Sequence record: MZ311861.1
Direction: 5' to 3' (one strand)
DNA from: Escherichia phage vB_EcoP_LNA5
Length of the DNA stretch: 39,091 nt
Shown piece after piece: positions 33,631 through 35,896 of this stretch (positions are counted from its first letter, which is position 1; every line of letters starts with the position of its first letter). The position numbers and the translations under genes were made by a program. The notes beneath the pieces were generated by a model. The model was not told the DNA's origin. It saw only the letters and a list, made by a program, of their open reading frames with translations, and did not search any database.

Positions 33631-33858
33631 TTAAATCATACTCATTAGGACGTATCCCTCAGCGATGTCACCAACGTCAGCAATGTGGACAACCTTACGT
33701 GCTACCTGTTGTCCAGTATACCCGTTGTCCCACTCATTCAGGATAAGCCAGTCGCCAACCTTAAAGTCCCGGTCGTTAAGTCTCAGCTCTGCTGTCTTTA
33801 GACCCAGTTGTACCGGACCAAAGTGCTGGCGGTGAATCTTCAGGTTGTGACTAGCCAT
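33631..33858 (-). CDS. DUF3850/ASCH-like small protein inserted between tail tubular genes A and B
   Basis: 75-aa ORF (MASHNLKIHRQHFGPVQLGLKTAELRLNDRDFKVGDWLILNEWD..YTGQQV..V) fits the recalled DUF3850 pattern; GGGAGGG upstream; TAATG overlap with the gp11 stop. Confidence 0.7.
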   Translation of the reverse strand: MASHNLKIHRQHFGPVQLGLKTAELRLNDRDFKVGDWLILNEWDNGYTGQQVARKVVHIADVGDIAEGYVLMSMI

Positions 33859-34435: not shown

Positions 34436-34525
34436 TTAGCGGTCATAGGGGCTAGACGGTGAGCTGGGCAGCAGGTACGCACAGAATAAGACGAATAGTG
34501 CTAACCCTGTGTAAATAAGGAACAT
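34436..34525 (-). CDS. possible 29-aa hydrophobic leader peptide between the T-phi-like terminator and gene 11
   Basis: AAGGAGGG 4 nt upstream of ATG; MFLIYTGLALFVLFCAYLLPSSPSSPYDR; its stop overlaps the gene 11 ribosome-binding site. Confidence 0.3.
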   Translation of the reverse strand: MFLIYTGLALFVLFCAYLLPSSPSSPYDR

Positions 34526-34540: not shown

Positions 34541-34577
34541 AAAAAAACCCCTCAAGCACCCGAAGGCACCCAAGGGG
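34541..34577 (-). terminator. T-phi-like late terminator after the capsid gene
   Basis: Minus strand CCCCTTGGGTGCC-TTCG-GGTGCTTGAGGGG followed by TTTTTTT; closely resembles the recalled T7 T-phi sequence; 7 bp past the 10B stop. Confidence 0.85.
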
Positions 34578-34583
34578 TTTCAA

Positions 34584-34874
34584 TTAGTTTGTGAAAGATA
34601 CGTTGAAGGAACGCACAGGCGTACCGTCATACCCAACAATCACCAGACCTTCCACGCCAGAGGTGGCCTTGAAGTAGAGACTGTTGGTTCTACGGGAGTA
34701 GCTAACACCATCAGGCGTAGTCACCTCAAGCAGCGACCAATCGGTCACATCTGAAAGCTCAGGGAAGTCAACCTTCAGGCTGGTTCCCACCGTAGAACTA
34801 TACGTCTCTAAGGTAGGACCCTCTGTAGAGAGGGCCTTAAAGGTCGTTAACCCGCTGACGCCGCTGTGAAAACC
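34584..34874 (-). CDS. capsid 10B C-terminal extension reached by -1 frameshift from 10A
   Basis: The -1 frame is open from the GGTTTTC heptamer (34868..34874), 19 nt before the 10A stop, to a TAA at 34584; T7 makes 10B by a -1 shift at a comparable site near the end of 10A. Confidence 0.6.
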   Translation of the reverse strand, partial: GFHSGVSGLTTFKALSTEGPTLETYSSTVGTSLKVDFPELSDVTDWSLLEVTTPDGVSYSRRTNSLYFKATSGVEGLVIVGYDGTPVRSFNVSFTN

Positions 34875-35896
34875 AGTGCGCCTGCTGCTTCTGGACGCAG
34901 ACCACCGTGACCCATAGCGTACTTACCAACAATCAGGTCGCCCTGAGCATCGACGTCACGGTCACGTTCCAGCGCCAAGTCACGCAGCTTAACAGTACCT
35001 ACAGCAGAACGGTGAGAGAACAGGCCCACAACGTTGTCCAGAGCAACTTTAACATCACCAGTAGCAGTAGCTGGGAAGGCGTGCTTCTGACCAGTCGCAA
35101 TAGTGATACCATCGGCACCACGAGTTTCCCCAGCACCACCCTGAGTCAAGTGTGGAACTTCAACAACCACGAAGCCCATTACGTTACGGATGTTACCAGT
35201 CTCTGGGTCAATCAGCGCAGCATAGTTAGCAGCGTTCGGCATCAGAGCCGCGAGGATTGCAGAGTAGTTGTCCGGCGTGGTGTAGAAGTAACGGTCGCCA
35301 GCAGGAACGTAGTTGGATGTCAGCTTCGCACGAGCAATGGTCAGTTGACCGATGATTGCTTCACCCAGCTTAGCCGGAGTGTTCAGGTCTGCTTTAGTAC
35401 CAACTTCCAGCACAGACGCTTTGCCAAGACCAGCGATGTTTTCATCAGATGCAGCCGGTAGGTTACACAGAATAGCCATCTCAGCCAGTACCGCACCATC
35501 GGCAGCGATAGCCAGAGCTTCGCCCAACTGGTTGGAGTACTCGCCAGCCACGTCATAGTGGTTCATCGCGTCTTCAATGTCGAAAATCATCACATCGGCA
35601 GTCAGCAGACCATCAATGGTAATCACTTTCTCGGTATGTTTGATACCTTTACGCTTATCGGACAGTCGCTCACCCGGAGCCAGATACACCCCAGAGGTGC
35701 GTCCCATGACCGGGAACTGAGCAGACTTACCGTTCTGAATGGTACGGACAATATGCTTGTCAGCAGTTACAGAGCGGCGAGTGAATGCGGTCAGGACTTC
35801 ACCAGCAAAGACCTTCAGGAACAACGCCAGAGCGTCGGAACCAGATTTGCCTTTACCTTGGTCTGTACCAACTTTCTGACCCGGAACGTTTGCCAT
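34847..35896 (-). CDS. major capsid protein gp10A
   Basis: Recalled collinear similarity to T7 gp10A (..GTDQGKG.., ..LALFLKVF.GEVLTAF.R.SVT.., ..KSAQFPV.GRT...YLAPGE.L.DKRK.IKHTEKVITIDGLLTADV.I.DIEDAMNHYDV.., ..KYAMGHGGLRPEAAGA.VF); AGGAG 9 nt upstream. Confidence 0.97.
   Translation of the reverse strand: MANVPGQKVGTDQGKGKSGSDALALFLKVFAGEVLTAFTRRSVTADKHIVRTIQNGKSAQFPVMGRTSGVYLAPGERLSDKRKGIKHTEKVITIDGLLTADVMIFDIEDAMNHYDVAGEYSNQLGEALAIAADGAVLAEMAILCNLPAASDENIAGLGKASVLEVGTKADLNTPAKLGEAIIGQLTIARAKLTSNYVPAGDRYFYTTPDNYSAILAALMPNAANYAALIDPETGNIRNVMGFVVVEVPHLTQGGAGETRGADGITIATGQKHAFPATATGDVKVALDNVVGLFSHRSAVGTVKLRDLALERDRDVDAQGDLIVGKYAMGHGGLRPEAAGALVFTAASAG

Follow-up and report, generated by a model that had tools for sequence, protein, structure and literature searches.

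The DNA analyzed here, referred to below as the window, is a 39,091-nucleotide stretch from Escherichia phage vB_EcoP_LNA5 (LNA5; sequence record MZ311861.1), a K1F-like Kayfunavirus of the T7 subfamily Studiervirinae whose genes lie on the minus strand. The order on that strand is scaffolding protein, major capsid protein, an extension region, a terminator, a tiny open reading frame (ORF), tail tubular protein A, a small ASCH-like gene and tail tubular protein B. The region has 99.9% identity with its counterpart in Escherichia phage vB_EcoP-101120B2 and 99% with those in LM33_P1 and further members of Kayfunavirus; record MZ234023, also 99.9% identical, lists the tail discussed below as a separate hypothetical protein. 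The features with which we are concerned are the following:

34847..35896, minus strand: gene 10A, major capsid protein, 349 aa and 36.3 kDa (from the ORF list)
34849..34847, minus strand: TAA stop codon of 10A
34868..34874, minus strand: slip site G_GUU_UUC, Val342-Phe343 in the 10A frame and GGU UUU in the -1 frame
34584..34868, minus strand: -1 frame extension of the predicted 10B, 94 codons (HSGVSG...SFTN) plus TAA (from translation)
34809..34867, minus strand: linker, extension residues 1-20, predicted to be disordered (AlphaFold2 pLDDT about 48-50)
34587..34808, minus strand: predicted Ig-like beta-sandwich domain of seven strands, residues 21-94
34818..34835, minus strand: small hairpin GCCCUCU-CUAC-AGAGGGU of 6-7 bp (single-sequence and alignment folds)
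34544..34581, minus strand: T-phi-like intrinsic terminator, a 17-pair hairpin followed by a T run (terminator scan)

Gene 10A is preceded by an AGGAG Shine-Dalgarno sequence, and its product matches the Pfam family PF21703 (Gp10A-like, E 1e-104), is approximately 70% identical to the T7 capsid protein by tblastn, and finds its structural relatives in the PDB in entries 9vvq (4e-215) and 2xvr (T7 gp10A, 9e-146). The 347-aa chain of 9vvq, which has the length of a 10A, is called ‘Minor capsid protein’, and in phage U8 (MT862763) a 349-aa 10A ORF is labelled ‘Minor capsid protein 10B’ and the tail hypothetical, both of which seem to be naming slips.

Two small ORFs lie downstream. The first (34436..34525, minus strand) encodes 29 hydrophobic residues (MFLIYTGLALFVLFCAYLLPSSPSSPYDR) between the terminator and gene 11 behind a strong AAGGAGG Shine-Dalgarno sequence; it is annotated as hypothetical in some relatives, is absent from phages Peacock and K1F, has no PHROG match, and may be a small membrane protein. 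The second (33631..33858, minus strand), located between tail tubular proteins A and B, encodes a 75-aa protein that matches PHROG 986 (‘RNA-binding protein’, E 3e-35) and which we read as ASCH-like; T7 has no gene at that position.

In frame, the 3' end of gene 10A reads GCA CTG GTT TTC ACA GCG GCG TCA GCG GGT TAA. An earlier note on this DNA had placed a GGTTTTC heptamer just ahead of the 10A stop, and it is indeed found at 34874..34868 on the minus strand, seven codons ahead of the stop at 34849..34847 with 18 nt lying between heptamer and stop. The -1 frame is open from about position 34925 to a TAA at 34586..34584, and thus for 94 codons past the Phe codon, in good agreement with the approximately 95 codons first proposed; the extension peptide quoted at that time is likewise the true translation. 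The expected chance of an open frame of 88 codons is roughly 1-2% by our own estimate from 3/64 stop codons. The predicted full-length product, join(35896..34868, 34868..34584), has 437 aa and a mass of 45.9 kDa, as compared with 36.3 kDa for 10A. For a slip on the Phe codon the predicted read-through is ...GALVF-HSGVSGLTTFKALSTEGPTLETYSSTVGTSLKVDF...NVSFTN, and the predicted junction peptide is ...GGLRPEAAGALVFHSGVSGLTTFK, which can also be written ...GGLRPEAAGALVF-HSGVSGLTTFK.

We consider it very probable that a T7-like -1 slip at this heptamer yields a longer minor form of the capsid protein, in the manner of the gene 10A/10B arrangement. Under such a model the majority of ribosomes would stop at the TAA at 34849..34847 to give the 349-aa 10A, while a minority would move back one base on G_GUU_UUC (34874..34868), chiefly through re-pairing of tRNA-Phe from UUC to UUU, and would go on to read 94 further codons in the -1 frame. 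The resulting 437-aa minor capsid protein would then co-assemble with 10A and bear a 74-residue Ig-like beta-sandwich on a linker of about 20 residues.

To examine the conservation of the site we compared 14 annotated genomes and then a total of 72 loci from GenBank phages and IMG/VR. Locus L010 (OP272493, Enterobacter phage 04_vB_Eclo_IJM) was left out of the comparisons; its capsid gene and extension are interrupted by several shifts of frame and appear in the record as many small ORFs, and it is probably a low-quality assembly. We found the hexamer GTTTTC in frame at 72 of 72 loci, with the heptamer starting in G at 69 of them, in C at 2 and in A at 1. The C_GUU_UUC variant belongs to two Przondovirus loci, and the A_GUU_UUC variant to a single IMG/VR locus (IMGVR_UViG_2974609768_000001) whose linker is also approximately 25 residues longer. 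Since the first base can vary, re-pairing of the P-site tRNA seems to be of little weight, and the UUC-to-UUU slip is the conserved element. The part of 10A that follows the Phe codon differs among the compared loci both in length (3-7 codons) and in sequence, which makes the slip hexamer the fixed point of this otherwise changeable gene end. GGTTTTC is not found in the window more often than chance would predict (2 observed versus 3.8 expected), and G_GUU_UUC differs from the canonical X_XXY_YYZ heptamer; what places the feature beyond chance is its conservation, in that the in-frame hexamer and an open -1 frame occur together in all 72 related loci. We initially considered the invariance of the GTT and TTC codons as evidence in its own right, and dropped this argument because many gene 10 codons are invariant across the same genomes and the gene is highly codon-biased.

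The zone in which both frames are open spans 25 codons, and in principle other positions within it could give a product of nearly the same size, either by ribosomal slippage elsewhere (e.g. on A_GCG_GGU at 34856) or by slippage of the phage RNA polymerase on the T run. We regard this reading as highly improbable. GGTTTTC is the sole U-rich slip candidate in the zone, no other site there is U- or A-rich or conserved, and only GTTTTC is invariant in the 72 loci, the sequence from there to the stop varying in length and content. Slippage of polymerases is known on runs far longer than four T, and transcriptional slippage was set aside because the four-T run is far shorter than these. In addition, in the T7-like phage Kvp1, for which frameshifting at TTTTC has been shown by mass spectrometry, the spectra put the shift at TTTTCA (PMC2579914).

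Downstream of the slip site the -1 frame behaves as a coding sequence. Matches to the extension were found by tblastn in 454 phage records. Beyond the overlap with 10A, the extension differs from that of phage EcpYZU01 at 10, 2 and 29 sites in codon positions 1, 2 and 3, with a dN/dS of 0.076/0.63 (approximately 0.12), and from that of ZCEC02 at 12, 10 and 36, with a dN/dS of 0.15/0.84 (approximately 0.18). This third-position bias, together with dN/dS values of 0.12-0.18, argues that the extension is translated and under purifying selection. The position of the -1 stop is also well kept, lying 3-15 nt ahead of a T-phi-like terminator in 14 out of 14 annotated genomes and likewise just ahead of it in the IMG/VR loci inspected at this end, with the exception of one locus that has lost its terminator (L029, IMGVR_UViG_2974604219_000001). 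A natural deletion in this genome, at about positions 700-980, has brought the sequence ...EVTTPE, midway through the Ig-like domain, up against the terminator's T tail. The C-terminal half of the domain is missing, as is the terminator hairpin, and the -1 frame is fused to the small hydrophobic ORF. The deletion suggests that such phages can do without the domain and T-phi, unless the genome comes from a defective or laboratory variant.

The L029 deletion, which runs through both domain and terminator, is also the kind of event expected if the open frame were no more than a relic of evolution or a side effect of constraints acting at the RNA level, with no useful translation, and such a reading would sit well with the fact that 10B is dispensable in T7. 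It is nevertheless the least probable of the readings that we weighed, as dN/dS values of 0.12-0.18 are kept across genera at dS greater than 0.6, and the extension is confidently predicted to adopt a compact fold, which was independently modelled also for a 50%-identical homologue in BFVD.

Many database records follow a different gene model, in which the extension is an independent protein of 54-87 aa called hypothetical or ‘minor capsid protein’. For LNA5 this would correspond to a separate 68-aa gene that begins at GTG 34790, the only start-type codon in the -1 frame past the 10A stop, and whose product would be unfused to the capsid protein. No Shine-Dalgarno sequence precedes this GTG, however, although AGGAG or GGAGG stands at the usual distance ahead of genes 10, 11 and 12 and of both small neighbors, and the annotated starts vary by lineage and are unconserved. 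Furthermore, amino-acid conservation and synonymous-only change run 5' of the GTG up to the 10A stop, the alignment to the PHROG 7473 profile already begins at extension residue 15, well ahead of the residue that the GTG encodes (residue 27), and tblastn alignments against Przondovirus genomes cover residues 1-94, beginning at residue 1 even at 43% identity. A product initiated at the GTG would also be missing predicted strand 1 (residues 22-26). On the grounds that there is no Shine-Dalgarno sequence, that the starts are unconserved, and that both conservation and fold reach further upstream, independent initiation at GTG 34790 was rejected, and we hold a free-standing gene to be very unlikely.

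The joined, frameshifted product is by contrast an arrangement that is already known. The -1 programmed ribosomal frameshift of T7 gene 10A/10B was reportedly worked out by Condron et al. in 1991. The T7 site has been described with X_XX = G_GU (Atkins et al. 2016, PMC5009743), and turns about 10% of translations into 10B (PMC1635266; PMC5009743). When LNA5 was set against the mapped T7 site, the slip sequence, its register and its position before the 10A stop were all found to match: the capsid proteins are homologous, and G_GUU_UUC is read in one and the same register, with only a few codons left to the 10A stop. In both phages the -1 stop also lies directly ahead of a T-phi terminator that carries CCCC in its 5' arm. 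Site and register are likewise shared by K1F, CR8, KP32, K11 and more than 60 other loci. By analogy with T7, slipping would be expected to take place in LNA5 at a frequency like the roughly 10% of T7, and the 10B product would be expected in its virions.

The parallel with T7 does not extend to the tail itself. That of T7 has 56 residues, is charged and rich in alanine and glutamate, and is not Ig-like, whereas that of LNA5 has 94 residues and is predicted to be Ig-like; no alignment and no sequence similarity could be found between the LNA5 tail and those of T7 and K1F. The proposal of the earlier note that the locus mirrors T7 10A/10B was thus borne out for the slip sequence, register, position and the terminator after the -1 stop, but not for the tail, which has no homology to the T7 10B tail. 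K1F, the type species of Kayfunavirus, illustrates the same point within the genus. Its slip site is that of LNA5, the 3' end of its capsid gene is almost identical and its terminator nearly so, yet its tail is of the short T7 type, charged and alanine-rich (48 residues by our own translation, ‘44 triplets’ in PMC6277420), and is homologous to the tail of T7. The K1F gene 10b is in experimental use as a frameshift-dependent display site (PMC6277420, PMC13370021).

Closer counterparts of the LNA5 product are available in two annotated records. Peacock (MK903279) is 98.5% identical to LNA5 over the region and has the same 94-residue extension with 4 substitutions, and its record already annotates a joined minor-capsid CDS formed by a -1 frameshift. 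In gene 10B of the Citrobacter phage CR8 (HG818824) the slip site is unchanged and the homologous tail is 50% identical, and the CR8 record marks 10B as a joined CDS with a ‘tttt’ feature and notes mass-spectrometry matches in which no peptides are named; the CR8 genome announcement makes no mention of frameshifting or mass spectrometry. A more distant variant is found in T3 and T7M, where the slip site is C_CCA_AAG (lysine; CCCAAAG in T7M) as opposed to GGTTTTC in LNA5, and no C_CCA_AAG-like motif is present in the LNA5 overlap zone. The T3 10B tail has been described as Ig-like (PMC5009743). We read the T7M tail from its sequence as a Big_2-type domain, which is not similar in sequence to that of LNA5; the -1 stop of T7M lies about 160 nt ahead of the terminator.

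To shed light on what the extension might encode, we modelled it with AlphaFold2 using an alignment of 12 sequences, which gave approximately 20 disordered residues followed by a seven-strand beta-sandwich with a pLDDT near 89. The length and sequence of the linker differ among lineages. Foldseek gave as its best match in the PDB (E 1.3e-3) the Ig-like domain at the C-terminus of the tail tube protein of lambda. In BFVD the ‘minor capsid protein’ of Pectobacterium phage PP81, itself an independent model, ranked first (TM 0.87), and various Ig-like phage proteins came after it. At the sequence level, residues 15-94 match positions 2-82 of the 82-position profile of PHROG 7473, whose function is unassigned (E 6.7e-37). 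Pfam returned no family for the tail, with just a chance match at E 0.14, and gave it no membership in the recognized Ig sequence families (Big_2, I-set, FN3, BACON), nor was any sequence relative of the tail found among solved structures. A profile search of 1.84 billion representative proteins recovered the domain only as short ORFs of the same locus, apart from a weak match to BACON repeats, and a word-index protein search returned nothing but short mis-called ORFs from that locus. The BACON link was discarded, as its HMMER E value of 1e-9 is summed over repeated partial matches and hhalign gave a probability of just 29%; further matches among long representative proteins reflected only a short ‘LYF’ repeat motif and were spurious.

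The tail is thus predicted to be an Ig-like beta-sandwich of its own, unnamed family, and the domain seems to be essentially confined to the end of this capsid gene. Tails of this kind are shared by CR8, Przondovirus (KP32, K11) and many members of Kayfunavirus. It is reasonable to expect that the domain sits on the capsid surface, because the C-terminus of T7-type capsid proteins faces outward, a property on which T7 and K1F display is based (PMC6277420). The C-terminal domain of lambda gpV and Hoc of T4 are Ig-like decoration domains of tailed phages with which the LNA5 tail shares its predicted fold. From such parallels the domain may bind something outside the capsid, glycans being a guess by analogy with phage Ig-like domains.

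We also searched the RNA downstream of the slip site for elements that might stimulate frameshifting. The T-phi-like terminator, which had been placed just after the -1 TAA, is present there as a 17-pair hairpin and T run (34581..34544), beginning 3 nt past the -1 stop and with its CCCC at 34577..34574; the -1 stop of K1F is followed by a near-identical hairpin and that of T7 by a similar one. In T7 the CCCC of the terminator has been reported to affect frameshifting from more than 200 nt away (PMC5009743), and the distance from slip site to terminator is about 290 nt in LNA5 versus more than 200 nt in T7. As for a downstream stimulatory structure of the canonical type, which the earlier note had raised, neither single-sequence nor alignment folds gave a hairpin or pseudoknot at the usual spacing of 5-9 nt, and what was found are lineage-specific hairpins 20-32 nt downstream. 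Rfam returned no family match in the region and only two sub-threshold chance matches.

In LNA5 the nearest stable hairpin (34835..34818) starts 11 nt past the 10A stop and 32 nt past the slip site, and is followed by a larger second stem-loop. It shows no covariation within the LNA5 lineage, where its sequence hardly varies, while the 101-nt region as a whole folds better than shuffled sequence (z -3.1). Other lineages carry different hairpins at the equivalent place, some with compensatory changes; that of EV136_1 and CR8 is capped by a UUCG loop. In Przondovirus (loci L006, L007, L014, L015 and L035-L076) an 18-bp hairpin begins 20 nt past the slip site, just after the 10A stop, and occupies positions 20-62 nt past the slip site. 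Across 28 distinct, closely related sequences 98.8% of its cells are paired, versus 35-53% in shifted controls, and two pairs switch from AU to GC and from CG to UA via GU intermediates. As these sequences are so closely related, the compensatory count reflects few independent events. The compensatory changes cost amino-acid substitutions in the linker. Hairpins of this kind might act on frameshifting, on termination at the 10A stop or on the stability of the mRNA.

A different structure appears in the minimum-free-energy fold of the 101-nt region, in which the slip-site sequence CUGGUUUUCAC (34874..34864) pairs over approximately 11 bp with GUGGGAACCAG (34791..34780), some 85 nt downstream. 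Only four of these pairs are retained in the alignment consensus and none covaries, and we did not adopt this long stem because a stem that holds the slip site would be melted before the ribosome decodes it.

These results, when taken alongside T7 and its relatives, reveal a locus whose ends are fixed and whose content changes. Within Kayfunavirus the tail type varies while the slip site and terminator stay the same, and in Studiervirinae there are at least three unrelated payloads: the charged tail of T7 and K1F, the Big_2 domain of T3, and the Ig-like family of LNA5. The comparison suggests that two conserved elements, the slip site where the capsid gene ends and the T-phi terminator, may flank a cassette. 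We tentatively put forward, as a combined proposal that is possible though rather doubtful as a whole, that the 10B tail is an exchangeable payload cassette, that its Ig-like payload is a low-copy adhesin, and that the downstream hairpins form a long-spacer stimulator of frameshifting. By analogy the Ig-like payload might serve as a surface adhesin for host or mucosal glycans, and the hairpins 20-32 nt downstream might act as a non-canonical frameshift stimulator, which, if true, would bear on the unexplained long-range effects in T7.

T7-like 10A/10B recoding is well established, a gene model of this kind is already deposited for Peacock, and nothing here alters the accepted mechanism of frameshifting. 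What our analysis adds is an Ig-like tail, as predicted, of an unnamed family, a change of tail within a single genus, conserved hairpins at a non-canonical distance, and the recognition of a widespread mis-annotation. Most GenBank records of the group, those of the closest relatives included, give the tail as a free-standing hypothetical protein, while the gene should correctly be modelled as a CDS joined by a -1 frameshift and encoding a protein of 437 aa. A natural low-copy display of a predicted Ig-like domain on the capsid would be relevant to those who use K1F-type 10B display, as well as to ideas on the adherence of phages to glycans. With its fixed slip site and terminator and its changing tail, the locus also illustrates neatly how modules can be exchanged at a recoding site.
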